Shown: piece by piece, positions 1-31,351 of the stretch
Layout: each line of letters starts with the position of its first letter
Position numbering within the stretch: position 1 is the first letter of the stretch
Assembly (NCBI GenBank): GCA_017612805.1
Contig: JAGAFD010000005.1
Location: 10,130-74,129, forward strand
DNA: 64,000 nt
Origin: Bacilli bacterium
GTDB taxonomy: Bacteria > Bacillota_I > Bacilli_A > RF39 > UBA660
Reading direction: 5' to 3'
The notes under the pieces: model-generated
The model's input: only the letters and a program-made list of their open reading frames with translations
What the model was told of the DNA's origin: nothing
Databases searched by the model: none
Made by a program: the position numbers and the translations under genes

Positions 1-1730
1 CCCATTTTACGAATAAATGGATCTCTTGTTGGAACAGCCCCTATTTCATATAAGAAGTTTTGCCAGAAGAAGGCATATAATACATGTCTAGTAATGTGTT
101 CTGTACCACCAGTATAACAATCAACACTACCCCAATATTTTAATTTATCAAAGTCAGCTAAAGCTTGATCATTATGTGGATCGCAATATCTTAACCAATA
201 CCAAGATGAACCAGCCCAGTTAGGCATTGTATCAGATTCTCTTTTAGCAGGTCCACCACATTTAGGACATGTACAATTAATCCAACTATCAATTTTAGAA
301 AGTGGTGATGAACCATTATCATTTGGCATATAATCATTTGTTCTTGGTAATGTTAATGGTAAATCTTCTTCATTAAGTGAAACTGTTCCACATTTTTCAC
401 AAAATACTACTGGGAATGGTTCACCCCAATATCTTTGACGATTAAATGACCAATCTTGCATTTTATAATTTACTTGTTTCTTACCAATACCCATATTAAC
501 AACTTTTTCAGCAATTTTTTTCTTAGCTTCAATTACTGGCATACCATCAAATTCTTCTGAATTCATCATTTTAGGATTAGTTTGTAAATAATCATATTTT
601 TCTAAAGCACATTTACTAACATCACCTTCAATAACTTGAATCATTGGAATATTAAATTTAGTTGCAAATTCATAATCTCTTTGATCATGGGTAGGTACTG
701 CCATAACAATACCAGTTCCATAAGATGCTAAAACAAAATCGGAAAGATAAATTGGTACTTTAACACCATTAATTGGATTAATACCATAAATACCATCTAA
801 CTTACAGCCTGTTTTTTCTTTTTGATCAGAAATACGATCTAATTCACTACGATAAGTAGTAGCTTTTTGATAAGCTCTTACTTCATCAATATTTTTAATT
901 TTAGATGCTAATTTATCAATTAAACTATGTTCTGGTGCCATTACAAAGAAAGTAATTCCATAAACAGTTTCAATACAAGTAGTAAAAATAGATGATTGAT
1001 CTAACTTATTACCATCACTATCAACAATATCAAAACTAAGTTCAATTCCTTCACTACGACCAATCCAGTTACGTTGTAATTCTTTTAAGTTTTCATTCAT
1101 TGTAATGCGATCAACGTTTTCAAGTAATTTTTCAGAGTATTCTTTCATTTTTAAGAACCATACCCATCTTTCTTCTTGAACAACTTTACCATGACAACGA
1201 TCACATTCTCCACCTTGAGAATCTTCATTAGATAAAACTGTTTTACAATTAGGGCAGAAGTTAACTACTCCTTTTTGTTTATAAGCCTTACCTTCATCAA
1301 AGAATTTTTTAAAAATCCATTGTGTCCATTTGTAATAACTTGGATCAGAAGTACAAATAGTACGATCCCAATCAAATGATAAACCTAATTTTCTAGATTG
1401 ATCTAATACTCTTTCCATACCTTCATGAACAAAATCTTCCGGATTAATACCAGTTTTAATTGCTGCATTTTCAGCTGGTAAACCAAATGCATCTCCACCT
1501 ATTGGGAATAATACATTATAACCTTGTAATCTTTTCATACGTGATAGCGCATCAGCTGGAACAGTACCTTTTAAATGTCCCATATGTAAATTACCACTTA
1601 TATTATAAAATTCATATAATACATAATATTTTGGTTTAGTTGGATGAAAGTCTATTGCTGCAAAGCTCTTTTCATTAAACCATTTATCTTGCCATTTCTT
1701 TTCAATTGCTCTAATTTCTTCTATATTCAT
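1..1730 (-). CDS. leuS: leucyl-tRNA synthetase, N-terminal ~575 aa (3' end runs off window)
   Basis: Minus-strand translation from ATG at 1728-1730 reads MNIEEIRAIEKKWQDKWFNEKSF...GNLHMGHLKGTVPAD..., with a class I HIGH-type motif and LeuS-like N-terminus. The open frame continues to position 1. It is not in the ORF track because it is truncated at the window edge. Confidence 0.85.
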   Translation of the reverse strand, partial: MNIEEIRAIEKKWQDKWFNEKSFAAIDFHPTKPKYYVLYEFYNISGNLHMGHLKGTVPADALSRMKRLQGYNVLFPIGGDAFGLPAENAAIKTGINPEDFVHEGMERVLDQSRKLGLSFDWDRTICTSDPSYYKWTQWIFKKFFDEGKAYKQKGVVNFCPNCKTVLSNEDSQGGECDRCHGKVVQEERWVWFLKMKEYSEKLLENVDRITMNENLKELQRNWIGRSEGIELSFDIVDSDGNKLDQSSIFTTCIETVYGITFFVMAPEHSLIDKLASKIKNIDEVRAYQKATTYRSELDRISDQKEKTGCKLDGIYGINPINGVKVPIYLSDFVLASYGTGIVMAVPTHDQRDYEFATKFNIPMIQVIEGDVSKCALEKYDYLQTNPKMMNSEEFDGMPVIEAKKKIAEKVVNMGIGKKQVNYKMQDWSFNRQRYWGEPFPVVFCEKCGTVSLNEEDLPLTLPRTNDYMPNDNGSSPLSKIDSWINCTCPKCGGPAKRESDTMPNWAGSSWYWLRYCDPHNDQALADFDKLKYWGSVDCYTGGTEHITRHVLYAFFWQNFLYEIGAVPTRDPFIRKM

Positions 1731-2105: not shown

Positions 2106-2316
2106 CAATAAAAAAACACATCCGATAAGGACGTGTTTAAACGTGGTACCACCTTAATTTCTAGATTGCTCTAGCTTAATCTTGATAATGGAGAATTCTC
2201 CAAACACATCCAAAAGCAAGTTCATAAACATCTTTTATTAGTTTCCACCAACCACTAACTCTCTTTAAAAAGCATTATTTATTACTACTCTTTTTTCATC
2301 GCTTAGAAAGATTATA
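2106..2316 (-). promoter_or_regulatory. T-box riboswitch leader, Leu (CUU) specifier, with intrinsic terminator
   Basis: On the minus strand there is a TATAAT at 2311-2316. Stem I begins GCGAUGAaaaaAGAGUAGUA (GA/K-turn motif), followed by AGAGAG and a specifier loop GAA-CUU-G (codon at 2218-2220). The T-box sequence AAAUUAAGGUGGUACCACG at 2141-2161 matches the consensus AAUUAGGGUGGNACCGCG at 17 of 19 positions. A terminator hairpin AAACACGUCC-UUAUC-GGAUGUGUUU lies at 2114-2138 followed by U7. Confidence 0.75.
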
Positions 2317-4713
2317 TTATAAATTTTCAACATATTCAAGTAATTTTATAAACATTTTAATAAATACCGGATCTAAGCCTTCACTACGTAATTTACGGAT
2401 CTTAATACGTTTTTTACGCATATCTTCATCATTAAAGATAATATGGGAAATTGTTTCTTTTAAATCCGTTTTAATTTTTAAATCCGAAATGATTAAATCG
2501 ATTTCTTCATTAATTAAACGTACCGCATCTATTTCAATATCAGTACCCTTACAATTAATTGTTAATTGTGATGCTGTTGGTACATCCTTAACGGTTACTA
2601 CGAAGTCATTTTCTTCTTCTTTCGTTTCAACTGCTATTGCTTGATTACCAATCATTGCTGAAACTGAATCTGCTTCACGAACATTTCTAAAACGAACAAT
2701 ATAATCACGTTTTTCTGGAATAATACCATTCTTACCTTCAATTGGTCGAATTGTAACGGTATAGTTATTTGGCATGTAATTATAATCAATTGAAGTAATT
2801 GTGTAATAGCCTTGTTCAAATAGTGATGAAACACCATCATCTTCATATAAATTATAGGTATTATTTTCTCCTGGGAAAATATGTAATTCTAATGTTTTAG
2901 GAACACTTGTATCATTTAAGTTTTCACCTAATACAGCAAGTGGAATAATACTACCACTTTTTACAAACACCGGATAATCTTCACTATTATAGAAAGTTAC
3001 ATAACGTTTATCACCTGGAAATTTTTTACCGGTTTTAAAATCGTACCATAAACCAGCTGGAAGATATATTCTTTCAACACTACGATTCATAATCGTATCC
3101 ATTGGTTTAGTAATTGGACTAATAAGCATTTCATTACCAAAGTAATATTCATTACGGTAAGCAACTTCATCATATATTTCTGGATGTACATAATAAATTG
3201 GTTGACATAATGCAAGTCCATAGAAATAATATCGATAAGCTTCACTATAAATATATGGGATTAAACGATGTCTTAAATTTAAATAATTTCTAGTAATTTC
3301 TAATGTATTAGAATCCCAACGCCAAGGTTCGCGTTTATAATAGTGACCTTTTTTCGTACTAAATCTTAAGATTGGTGAGAAGCATCCTAATTGACAATAT
3401 CTTAGATATAAATCATTATCTTCTAATCCACCTTCATAACCACCAATATCATGACTCCACCATGAAAGTCCAATATTAGAAGCGGTAGCATTAAAGTATG
3501 GTAAATCTTTTAATACTTTCCAACTAACCGTCGTTCTACCACTATAATGTACAGGATATAAATGTCCAGCAATACAAGAATTATTAGCTAGAATTAAACC
3601 TCTTTTACTTTCATAATATTTGTAATAATTAAAATGATAATAATTTAAGGTACGATTCATTAATTCATCTTTTAATTCATAATCTAACCAAAAGAAATCC
3701 GTACCTAAATCATGTAATGGTTTAATCATGTATTTAAAATATGCATCAATAAACGTTTTATCTAAAGCATTAAATGGAATAACTTGATTAGTTGTATCAT
3801 TTACTGCTTCTTTAAATTGTTGATAATTCGTTTCATGAGGCATTATTCCTTCAGTAGGATTAATATTTAAACCAACATGAATACCACGTTCATGCATATA
3901 ATCCATCATTTCTTTAGGATTAGGAAACAATTTTTGATTAAATAAATAACCTGTTTTTAAAATATTGGGATTATTACGATTTCTAATATGCCAATCATTA
4001 CCTAACAATAATACTGAAAGTGGAATACGATGTTTATTAAATAATTTTAATAACTCTTTCGTATCATAAAAACTATATGGCATATCACGGTTCCACCAAA
4101 CCCCTAAAGCATATCTTGGAATTAATGGTGGACGACCAGTAACCATGAAATAATCTCTTAAAGCTAAACCAAAGTCACGACGATACATAAAAACATAAGT
4201 ATCAATTCGTTTACCACTAGCCGGAATAAAATATCCATCTGGATCTAGTAATAACGAAGTACTATCATCAAGGGTTGCAAAACCATCGGTTGAATATAAA
4301 CCTTTTCTTAACTTCTTATCTAACATACGGCTACTACCTAAAAAATTTCTCGCTTCAGGATGACCAAAATAATAAACTTTTTCCGTATTAGTTAAAATAA
4401 TTTTTAAATTAGTATCCGGAGCAATTCTAGGTCCACTAAAAGTTGTTCCTTTATGATATTGTAATTGAAAATAACGGGTAGTAATAACTAAATAATTTTC
4501 ATCTTCCGTTACTTGAAATTCTGGTCTTGGTAAATTACGATGATGAATTAACTCGGTTGCACTATCAACAAAAGTACCATCTTCGCTATATTCTAGGCGA
4601 ACTAAGCGCTCAGTTAAAACGGTAATACGATAATTAGCGCCACGGAAAGTGCATTCTCTATTAGCAATTAAATCATTTTGATTAGTTTTAAGATTATTAA
4701 AAAATGCTTCCAC
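2317..4713 (-). CDS. glycoside hydrolase family 31 (alpha-glucosidase/alpha-xylosidase-like)
   Basis: 798 aa. The GH31-like catalytic region reads ...LLLGNDWHIRN...GIHVGLNINPTEG...WSHDIGGYEGG... Confidence 0.75.
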   Translation of the reverse strand: MEAFFNNLKTNQNDLIANRECTFRGANYRITVLTERLVRLEYSEDGTFVDSATELIHHRNLPRPEFQVTEDENYLVITTRYFQLQYHKGTTFSGPRIAPDTNLKIILTNTEKVYYFGHPEARNFLGSSRMLDKKLRKGLYSTDGFATLDDSTSLLLDPDGYFIPASGKRIDTYVFMYRRDFGLALRDYFMVTGRPPLIPRYALGVWWNRDMPYSFYDTKELLKLFNKHRIPLSVLLLGNDWHIRNRNNPNILKTGYLFNQKLFPNPKEMMDYMHERGIHVGLNINPTEGIMPHETNYQQFKEAVNDTTNQVIPFNALDKTFIDAYFKYMIKPLHDLGTDFFWLDYELKDELMNRTLNYYHFNYYKYYESKRGLILANNSCIAGHLYPVHYSGRTTVSWKVLKDLPYFNATASNIGLSWWSHDIGGYEGGLEDNDLYLRYCQLGCFSPILRFSTKKGHYYKREPWRWDSNTLEITRNYLNLRHRLIPYIYSEAYRYYFYGLALCQPIYYVHPEIYDEVAYRNEYYFGNEMLISPITKPMDTIMNRSVERIYLPAGLWYDFKTGKKFPGDKRYVTFYNSEDYPVFVKSGSIIPLAVLGENLNDTSVPKTLELHIFPGENNTYNLYEDDGVSSLFEQGYYTITSIDYNYMPNNYTVTIRPIEGKNGIIPEKRDYIVRFRNVREADSVSAMIGNQAIAVETKEEENDFVVTVKDVPTASQLTINCKGTDIEIDAVRLINEEIDLIISDLKIKTDLKETISHIIFNDEDMRKKRIKIRKLRSEGLDPVFIKMFIKLLEYVENL

Positions 4714-4774
4714 TTAATTCACCCTTTTCTATTCTCTTTATATCATAACACAATTTTATTTTTTTAAAAAGATA

Positions 4775-6625
4775 TTATTGATCTAAAATAATACGTGCTC
4801 CACGAGTTAATCCTGCTTGTTGACTATCATAAACATTAATTCTAAATAAACCAGAAATATAACGACTTGAAGAAAAATCGCCACCATACATTAATGGATG
4901 ATTACCTGTCCAAGTAATGGAATGATCACCAATATAAGTTGATTCAGTACCACCAAATTCAGAAGCTACCATTATTTTTGAATAATTACTATCAAATGAT
5001 AATGTTTTAATATATTCGTGTAATCCACCATTATTACCTACATAAACATTAGTTGCTTCATAACAACCATCAGTTTTATTATCAACATAATCACGTGGAC
5101 TATAACAAATATAAGCTTGATAATTTTTAAAATTAATGCCATCAACATAAGTCCAAACATTACCGTAAAGGTTTTCAATACCACGATAAATATTAGGTTG
5201 GGCAATACCAATAACACTATCAGAATAATAACCAGACTTCATTCCGTATTGATCGGTTAATCCTGATGGTGGTGCCGAAATACGCATTGCATAAGAAGTA
5301 TCATAATTTAAATTATTATAATCCAGTGTAATTTTTTTTCCAGTGATATTACCATTACTATAATCTTCAATAGCTACTACTTTAAGATTATATAGTTCAC
5401 GGGTTTTATCAGAAGTTGTAGAAATAATATTAACATAATAACCTGGTTTAGTATGCCATGAATTAGCAACAATTACATAGTTTGAATTAACCGCAGCTTC
5501 TAAAAGTTTACGATTACCATTAGATAATTCCACGATTCCATAACCTAAAACACTTTGGGCATTATAGTTAGCATATTCCACTAAAAATAACATATAAATA
5601 TTAAATAGGCGATGATCAAATTGGGTAAATTTAGGCCCTAAAGCATAAGCTTGCGTTCTAAACCAACCTGGTTGACGATTAATCTCAATAGATGAACCAC
5701 TTTGACTAGTTAACTTTGTACCATCAAAACCAACATGATAACGTGATACTGAAAATGCCTCACTCTTAGTAAATCCTTCAACAGGATCACGACTAATTTC
5801 AATATATTCATAATCACCTTCACGATAACGATGATAATAAAACTCCGGAATATAAGTCATTACTAAACCATTAGAACCATCAAATTTAAAATTATCATCA
5901 CCAATAATACCAGCTTCTCTACCCGTAGTTAAATCATAATTATAACTATAAATATCACTCCATGGATAAATATAATCAAAAGCATTAGCAGAAACATTAT
6001 TTCCAACTATTGGATTAGCTACTAAAGCCGTACTATCTTTAATACGTTCCCAAGTAGTAGTTGATGCCGTAACATCTTTTTTAATACCATATATTTTTGA
6101 ATTATAAATATCCGATACTTGAATTGTACCAGTAATTGTTTTAGCTTCATCAACTGTTTGATCTAAATAAGAATTATTATAAGTAATGGTCATTGTATAA
6201 TCTTGCGTAGTATCAGGTTCAATCACAATATCTTTTAAAAGTAAGGCATCACTAGTTGGATAAATGGCATTAGTAACGCTACCCCCATTATTCGTTGAAG
6301 TAATAGTATAAGTTAAATCCGGATATCTGGTTAATTCATTATAAACATCCGTTAAAAAGATTTGATAAGTAATATTACCAGTACCAGTATTAGTAACACT
6401 AAACTTCTTAATTACTTGTTGGCCAGGTAATACTTCATTTATAACAATTGAATTAGTTTCCGAATAATTTAAATTTAAATATGGTGATTTAACAGTGGTT
6501 TGTGGTAAATCCGTAGCTAGAAAAATACTTGATCCATAATAAGCATATGAAAAACCAGCAATTGCTACAATTACTGCGATAACAATTATAATAATTAACC
6601 ATTTCTTATAATTCTTATTCTTCAT
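4775..6625 (-). CDS. N-terminally membrane-anchored extracellular protein, function unknown
   Basis: 616 aa. The N-terminus is MKNKNYKKWLIIIIVIAVIVAIAGFSY (signal/anchor). The rest is rich in T, S, N, Y and G. I recognise no catalytic motif. Confidence 0.55.
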   Translation of the reverse strand: MKNKNYKKWLIIIIVIAVIVAIAGFSYAYYGSSIFLATDLPQTTVKSPYLNLNYSETNSIVINEVLPGQQVIKKFSVTNTGTGNITYQIFLTDVYNELTRYPDLTYTITSTNNGGSVTNAIYPTSDALLLKDIVIEPDTTQDYTMTITYNNSYLDQTVDEAKTITGTIQVSDIYNSKIYGIKKDVTASTTTWERIKDSTALVANPIVGNNVSANAFDYIYPWSDIYSYNYDLTTGREAGIIGDDNFKFDGSNGLVMTYIPEFYYHRYREGDYEYIEISRDPVEGFTKSEAFSVSRYHVGFDGTKLTSQSGSSIEINRQPGWFRTQAYALGPKFTQFDHRLFNIYMLFLVEYANYNAQSVLGYGIVELSNGNRKLLEAAVNSNYVIVANSWHTKPGYYVNIISTTSDKTRELYNLKVVAIEDYSNGNITGKKITLDYNNLNYDTSYAMRISAPPSGLTDQYGMKSGYYSDSVIGIAQPNIYRGIENLYGNVWTYVDGINFKNYQAYICYSPRDYVDNKTDGCYEATNVYVGNNGGLHEYIKTLSFDSNYSKIMVASEFGGTESTYIGDHSITWTGNHPLMYGGDFSSSRYISGLFRINVYDSQQAGLTRGARIILDQ

Positions 6626-31274: not shown

Positions 31275-31351
31275 GTCTCCGTAGCTCAGCTGGATAGAGC
31301 ATACGCCTTCTAAGCGTACGGTCGCGCGTTCGAATCGCGCCGGGGACACCA
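31275..31351 (+). tRNA. tRNA-Arg (anticodon TCT), CCA encoded
   Basis: Cloverleaf with acceptor GTCTCCG/CGGGGAC and a GC-rich T-arm (GTCGCGCGTTCGAATCGCGCC). The anticodon loop is CTTCTAA. Confidence 0.85.

Follow-up and report, generated by a model that had tools for sequence, protein, structure and literature searches.

What is a gene for a small membrane protein doing between a leucine-specific T-box leader and leuS, the gene for leucyl-tRNA synthetase (LeuRS), in an uncultured gut Bacilli genome? The original prediction, read from a 64,000-nucleotide stretch of DNA (the window), described such a leader on the minus strand ahead of a 120-codon open reading frame (ORF), and offered two readings of that ORF: an uncharacterised leuS-linked factor, or a mis-call within an unusually long leader. 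The analysis reported here points to the locus probably being a bicistronic operon, encoding a three-helix membrane protein and then LeuRS, that is controlled by a tRNA-Leu-sensing T-box attenuator. The regulation itself is ordinary; the T-box and leuS are both usual members of known families.

The T-Box Leader and Its Candidate Promoter

A search of the 64-kb window against Rfam (cmscan) yielded a single T-box, a full-length match to RF00230 at 2124–2307 on the minus strand, where a hit had been anticipated. The alignment spans model positions 1–219 and scores 96.4 bits against a gathering score of 93 (E = 6e-20). All coordinates given below for the operon refer to this strand. Stem I begins as first read, with GCGAUGA at 2302–2296 and AGAGUA at 2291–2286, and carries a GA motif, an AGAGA bulge (2264–2260) and the distal loop GGUUGGUGGAAAC (2253–2241). 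The order characteristic of Stem I, an S-turn (AGUA...GAA), a codon and then a purine, is present: AGAGUA is answered by GAA-CUU-G at 2223–2217, in which the GAA of the S-turn (2223–2221) precedes the predicted leucine specifier CUU (2218–2220) and the purine G2217 follows it. Stem I gives way on its 3' side to a IIA/B-like hairpin, then to Stem III and lastly to the T-box sequence with the antiterminator. The hairpin UUGGAGAAUUCUCCA aligns to the IIA/B region of RF00230, and the canonical Stem II is missing, model positions ~106–133 being deleted in the alignment. Stem II and the Stem IIA/B pseudoknot occur in most T-boxes, are lacking in those of the glyQS type and are not essential for membership of the family.

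The T-box sequence AAAUUAAGGUGGUACCACG was found at 2160–2142, as predicted, and together with the antiterminator it occupies 2127–2160, an assignment that draws on the sequence, the RF00230 alignment and covariation. In the antiterminator (2155–2127, with GGUGGUACC at 2153–2145), helix A1 pairs AAGG (2155–2152) with CCUU (2130–2127) and helix A2 pairs ACGU (2144–2141) with ACGU (2134–2131), enclosing a 7-nt bulge, UGGUACC (2151–2145), whose UGGU is complementary to the ACCA 3' end of tRNA. The predicted terminator is likewise in place at 2109–2138: a 10-pair stem, AAACACGUCC-UUAUC-GGAUGUGUUU, forms a hairpin at 2138–2114 and runs directly into a U run (T run in the DNA). It is the one terminator-like site that a consensus scan detected in 1600–2500, against 0.2 expected in shuffled sequences, and it forms in the minimum-free-energy fold of the leader (z-score −2.6 against shuffles). 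The two structures share ACGUCC, in the 3' arm of the antiterminator and in the 5' arm of the terminator, and can therefore form only one at a time.

An alignment of 77 non-identical related leaders was used to examine the conservation of these elements. GAA-CU[U/C]-R is invariant in all 77 (CUC in four, CUU in the others), indicating that all of them are leucine-specific. RNAalifold recovered Stem I and the bulged antiterminator from this alignment, with compensatory changes (both sides changed and the pair kept) at 27 of the 29 predicted pairs; the antiterminator pairs covary at alignment columns 178–181/207–210 and 189–192/203–206.

A candidate sigma-70-type promoter, recognised by its consensus, lies at 2311–2339: TTGAAT (2339–2334) and TATAAT (2316–2311) are separated by a 17-nt spacer, match the consensus at 10 of 12 positions, form the best match of the region and are conserved in two relatives (L095 and L096). 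The predicted transcription start is at ~A2304/A2303. The interval first assigned to the leader, 2106–2316, takes in the −10 hexamer of this promoter.

The promoter falls at the 3' end of the upstream GH31 gene, within its last codons (stop at 2319–2317), and the leader begins ~13 nt past that stop. With no terminator separating the GH31 gene from the leader, transcription of GH31 could also run on into the T-box. The GH31 gene is itself directly preceded by the gene for a 616-aa protein (4775–6625, minus strand) that has a transmembrane or signal segment at its N-terminus, where it also matches camelysin weakly (Peptidase_M73, E = 4e-4, below the cut-off). The only tRNA gene in the window, at 31275–31348 on the plus strand (66 bits; 61% GC in an AT-rich genome), has the anticodon UCU (Arg) as read from the alignment, and so differs from the tRNA-Leu that the T-box would sense.

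The Small ORF as a Gene

The ORF at 1727–2089 encodes a 120-aa integral membrane protein with three hydrophobic helices, as the original prediction stated, and belongs to a previously unannotated family. It is preceded by a ribosome-binding site, GGAAAGGA (2099–2106), placed 9 nt 5' of the ATG and forming a duplex of −5.7 kcal/mol with the anti-Shine-Dalgarno (SD) sequence; an SD-like core precedes the small ORF in 59 of 72 related loci. A search with the single protein sequence returned 53 proteins of ~120 aa, with identities down to 35%, and a profile search returned 568 homologues. When 1.84 billion cluster representatives (50% identity) were searched exhaustively with an HMM, 609 clusters matched at E ≤ 1e-3 and 281 at E ≤ 1e-10, and nearly all of the 150 matches listed are stand-alone proteins of 115–135 aa. 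The family alignment contains eleven invariant columns (I71, F74, V75, F94, I101, Y102, E106, I107, Y108, G109 and R110), and its conserved motifs are EIYGR (E106–R110) and YLxxKFxL in the loop.

Comparison with the relative L095, whose protein is 90% identical, showed nucleotide differences of 11, 5 and 25 at codon positions 1, 2 and 3. Its 256-nt leader is 98% identical to that of the window, and its small ORF only 88.7%. Protein-level conservation, the distribution of these substitutions and a confident structure prediction (below) together rule against a mis-call in a long leader, and the ORF is almost certainly a real gene. That 1727–2089 might instead be untranslated leuS leader, open by chance, gains a little from the AT-rich genome, which makes long random ORFs less improbable, and from the absence of an annotated homologue, yet its chance is negligible in view of hundreds of length-conserved homologues sharing invariant residues, the bias of substitutions to the third codon position, a good and correctly spaced ribosome-binding site in most loci, the high-confidence three-helix model and the retention of the gene in genomes that have leuS elsewhere. 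The ORF was also considered as a leucine-sensing leader peptide and rejected in that role: what is conserved is a folded membrane protein, and CUU and CUC account for only 3 of its 16 Leu codons.

Overlap with leuS

The frame that opens with the ATG at 1730–1728 is free of stops for 576 codons, to the edge of the window (1–1730), and corresponds to the N-terminal part of leuS, the C-terminal third lying beyond that edge. Its product matches the class I catalytic domain tRNA-synt_1 (PF00133, E = 3e-31) and the LeuRS editing domain (PF13603, E = 6e-55), contains HMGH as its HIGH-type motif and is 43–56% identical to full-length LeuRS of related loci. The class I and LeuRS editing matches in this frame establish that the overlap with leuS is real: the TGA of the small ORF (1729–1727) and the ATG of leuS share the ATGA at 1727–1730, just as had been proposed.

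The small ORF and leuS are presumably co-transcribed, since the genes overlap and consensus scans of the region detected no additional terminator between them and promoter-like matches only at chance level. The last codons of the small ORF hold a purine-rich, SD-like stretch, AAAUGGGGCAAG, and an SD-like core is found at this position before leuS in 51 of 72 loci, suggesting that leuS may use re-initiation plus a weak SD sequence of its own, or may even be initiated without any coupling. As the overlaps are conserved (see below), translational coupling of the small ORF to leuS appears fairly likely.

Conservation of the Probable Operon in Related Genomes

In a scan of one genome per GTDB species, at least 155 genomes were found to encode a relative of the small protein. 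Eighty species-level loci were fetched, nearly all from uncultured metagenome-assembled genomes labelled Bacilli, Firmicutes, Tenericutes, Mycoplasma or Erysipelotrichaceae; named hosts include Coprobacillus sp. CAG:605, Mycoplasma sp. CAG:776, Ca. Ventrenecus and Ca. Caccenecus. A homologous T-box leader, the small ORF and an immediately adjacent leuS occur together in 69 of the 80 loci. Four more have the small ORF and leuS adjacent with no T-box nearby (L039, L062, L058 and L060), one has two extra genes between the small ORF and leuS, four lack both T-box and leuS and have the small ORF behind GH31 (L026, L048, L061 and L085), and two are truncated contigs. The small ORF therefore directly abuts leuS in 73 of the 80 genomes, or 73 of the 78 that are informative.

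The spacing of the two genes varies little. In the 73 genomes with abutting genes, the 72 measurable gaps run from −20 to +11 nt. Over the 97 loci fetched in total, a set that includes duplicates from the same genome, the gap is +1 in 24 loci, −4 in 22, −1 in 13 and −8 in 7; the three loci with a two-gene insertion fall outside the range of −20 to +11, at 2561 nt. The upstream neighbour varies, being GH31 in L001, L004 and L007, YchF in L010, a CmpB-like protein in L013 and recombinase genes in L008; Rfam detected a T-box before the small ORF in every one of these contigs, at 72–98 bits. GH31 occupies this position in only ~33 of 73 informative loci, so gene order is kept far better at the junction of the small ORF with leuS than around it. 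Homologues that precede leuS in 73 of 78 genomes, mostly overlapping or abutting it while the flanks vary, lend support to the idea of an uncharacterised leuS-linked factor.

Several loci depart from the common arrangement. Three genomes in which leuS is missing (L026, L061 and L085, ~4300–5600) have conserved genes of ~150 and ~190 aa after the small ORF; each encodes a hydrophobic segment at the N-terminus, and neither matches a Pfam family significantly. The 938-aa LeuRS at L039:4354-7170 carries a NUDIX domain (PF00293, E = 4e-11, residues 373–490) just after the CP1 editing domain, and the sequence of the LeuRS at L062:2922-5738, also of 938 aa, has the same insertion; both loci keep the overlap of the small ORF with leuS and have no detectable T-box. 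At L060:216-4333, a Leu T-box (87 bits) lies 3.4 kb 5' of the small ORF, followed in order by genes for two leucine-rich-repeat proteins of the BspA type (538 and 503 aa), a 93-aa ORF, the small ORF and leuS, so that leucine-rich proteins have been inserted into an operon induced by leucine starvation.

An enlarged operon stands behind the Leu T-box at L008:4796-10375 (also in L009 and L094), where the small ORF is followed by a 279-aa protein with no Pfam match, a group II PLP-dependent decarboxylase (PF00282), leuS and a YbaK-like tRNA_edit protein. L086 has two T-boxes, at 772–939 (before an AsnRS/AspRS-like gene) and at 2313–2520 (Leu), and a 446-aa gene is inserted between the Leu T-box and the small ORF; judged by eye, this gene seems to be a relative of the AlbA_2/HATPase_c_4 gene that lies upstream in L008.

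Structure and Topology of the Small Protein

AlphaFold2, run with the family alignment, modelled the small protein with a pLDDT of 93.4 and a pTM of 0.83. The model places helices at residues 2–31, 41–47, 57–81 and 86–116, corresponding to TM1 (~2–31), a short cytoplasmic helix (41–47), TM2 (57–81) and TM3 (86–116). Lysine and arginine residues number nine in loop 1, six in the C-terminal tail and one each in the N-terminus and loop 2, and the predicted topology is N-out/C-in, which would put the loop helix and the YEIYGR end of TM3 on the cytoplasmic face. The invariant residues (YLxxKFxL in the loop helix, N68, and YEIYGR at the end of TM3) would thus all face the cytoplasm; the conserved polar residues lie at the cytoplasmic interface and not in the membrane core. 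The protein showed no enzyme or transporter signature.

Searches of Pfam and NCBIfam gave no significant match. The only Pfam match of the small protein, XpaC/Halogen_Hydrol (PF10112), scored 14.7 bits against a gathering threshold of 29.8 (E = 0.03) and covers only TM1 and the loop; when 49 members of the family were scanned, it was absent from the Pfam families most often matched, none of which recurs convincingly. Identification as a phage holin, or another phage or defence protein, was rejected: PHROG and PADLOC gave no match below 0.03, no relative was found on IMG/VR viral contigs, and the only holin signal was weak Phage_holin_3_6 noise in 8 of the 49 members. No PDB sequence matched the small protein, and a Foldseek search of the PDB gave no match with E below 1, the best being 4.8. 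Small oligomeric transporters (SemiSWEET, SMR) were considered and set aside, as neither fold nor sequence similarity to solved members was found. The automatic labels of homologues (purine-cytosine permease-like, Tic20, YfcC) are few and inconsistent and were disregarded; all other names are “hypothetical”.

Proposed Regulation and Translation

The T-box mechanism is established, and the steps proposed here follow it together with the sequence and comparative data. T-box attenuation of the operon is very probable, and we infer that read-through is tRNA-dependent. Transcription would start at the promoter inside the end of the GH31 gene, and Stem I would then offer its CUU codon to the anticodon of tRNA-Leu. 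When this tRNA is uncharged, its ACCA end would pair with the UGGU of the bulge and stabilise the antiterminator (2155–2127), allowing polymerase to pass the terminator (2138–2109) and enter the operon. The small ORF would be translated from a normal ribosome-binding site, with ribosomes re-initiating at the ATGA, aided by the weak SD sequence in its last codons, so that LeuRS would be made in a fixed ratio with the membrane protein. Since TM1 lies at the extreme N-terminus, the mRNA would probably be located at the membrane while leuS is translated. These translational steps are suggested by the anatomy of the locus and the conservation of that anatomy.

Possible Roles of the Small Protein

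Tentatively, we take the small protein to be a membrane adaptor that faces the cytoplasm and acts together with LeuRS or with leucine supply; this is our leading guess. An adaptor is favoured because the conserved surface would be cytoplasmic, because mid-membrane polar residues are absent and because the protein would be made just before LeuRS from the same mRNA. It is unlikely, though worth stating, that the protein is a dedicated LeuRS partner that draws to the cytoplasmic side of the membrane either the synthetase or, while coupled translation is under way, the leuS mRNA. If so, such a partner could link leucine import or another membrane process to the charging of tRNA-Leu, and would represent a new kind of bacterial aminoacyl-tRNA-synthetase accessory factor restricted to a clade of uncultured gut Bacilli.

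A likelihood similar to that of the adaptor, appreciable and still short of even, attaches to the small gene being a hitch-hiker, that is, one encoding a housekeeping membrane protein with no role in leucine or LeuRS function, for which the leuS unit provides steady, growth-coupled expression and T-box control is incidental. The four genomes that keep the small gene without T-box or leuS are in its favour, as are L011:5001-6854 and L012, where the small gene, again without a T-box, lies just 5' of infC-rpmI-rplT, another translation operon; from these cases it follows that the small protein can work without cis-coupling to leuS or control by leucine. Furthermore, every locus that lacks leuS also lacks the T-box, whose presence thus goes with leuS rather than with the small gene, and in some lineages other genes have entered the operon (leucine-rich-repeat proteins, the PLP decarboxylase and an AlbA_2 regulator). 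However, a passenger would have had to stay next to leuS in 73 of 78 informative genomes at protein identities of 36–50%, with all 72 measured junctions overlapping or within 11 nt and far more conserved than either flank, and such persistence usually reflects selection for co-expression.

A role in transport, with the small protein oligomerising into a leucine or branched-chain importer or serving as an accessory subunit of one, induced along with LeuRS when tRNA-Leu is uncharged, seems decidedly improbable. The protein is an integral membrane protein and its hosts are uncultured gut Bacilli, which tend toward small genomes and reliance on amino-acid import. Amino-acid transporters are also common targets of T-boxes, 12% of which control them, with Leu-specific permeases among the genes regulated (PMC2494555). 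Against this, there are only three transmembrane helices, the conserved polar residues sit at the cytoplasmic interface and away from the membrane core, and among the genomes compared none was found in which a Leu T-box controls the small gene alone.

The adaptor and hitch-hiker readings would give the locus different meanings. The comparison defines a sizeable unannotated membrane-protein family, present in at least 155 species genomes and 281 clusters (E ≤ 1e-10), and across deep divergence the gene of this family has kept both its overlap with leuS and its place behind a Leu T-box. Should the link prove functional, the family would supply an accessory factor for an essential synthetase in abundant uncultured gut bacteria, and the two proteins would form a concrete pair for interaction and localisation studies. 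If it is not, the locus would be a clean case of a hitch-hiking gene fixed in an aminoacyl-tRNA-synthetase operon.

Comparison with Known Systems

The original prediction called the arrangement unusual, a description that holds in part. T-boxes ahead of uncharacterised genes are on record: for 8% of T-boxes the gene that follows has a function that is unknown or seems unrelated, which leaves the specifier as the main clue (PMC2494555). A literature search for the small-protein family, or for a membrane protein coupled to leuS, found no description, and both the family and its tight coupling to leuS appear to be undescribed. The novelty is a conserved, unannotated membrane-protein cistron that overlaps leuS throughout a clade of uncultured gut Bacilli.

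Closest in regulation are the leuS and ilv-leu T-box leaders of Bacillus and other Firmicutes (RF00230, specifiers CUC and CUU), which have the same Stem I architecture as the leader described here: a GA motif, an AGUA...GAA S-turn, a specifier followed by a purine, an AGAGA bulge and a distal loop. They likewise possess a T-box sequence with a UGGN bulge and a competing antiterminator and terminator, and leuS is among the genes that they regulate. The leader in the window differs in having no Stem II, and the first cistron that it would regulate is a membrane protein and not a synthetase. Small three-helix membrane-anchor subunits (SdhC/D, NuoK, MrpF/G and similar) also rank among the closest known systems. 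No sequence relationship links the small protein to anti-TRAP (see below) or to any of the families listed. The locus falls naturally beside the class of hypothetical proteins controlled by a T-box (Wels et al. 2008, PMC2494555), in which, as here, the specifier is the only clue to function. Finally, rtpA-ycbK of B. subtilis, which encodes anti-TRAP under a Trp T-box, similarly places a small protein that is neither a synthetase nor a biosynthetic enzyme behind a T-box. Unlike that system, the product here is an integral membrane protein, and its gene overlaps the synthetase gene itself.
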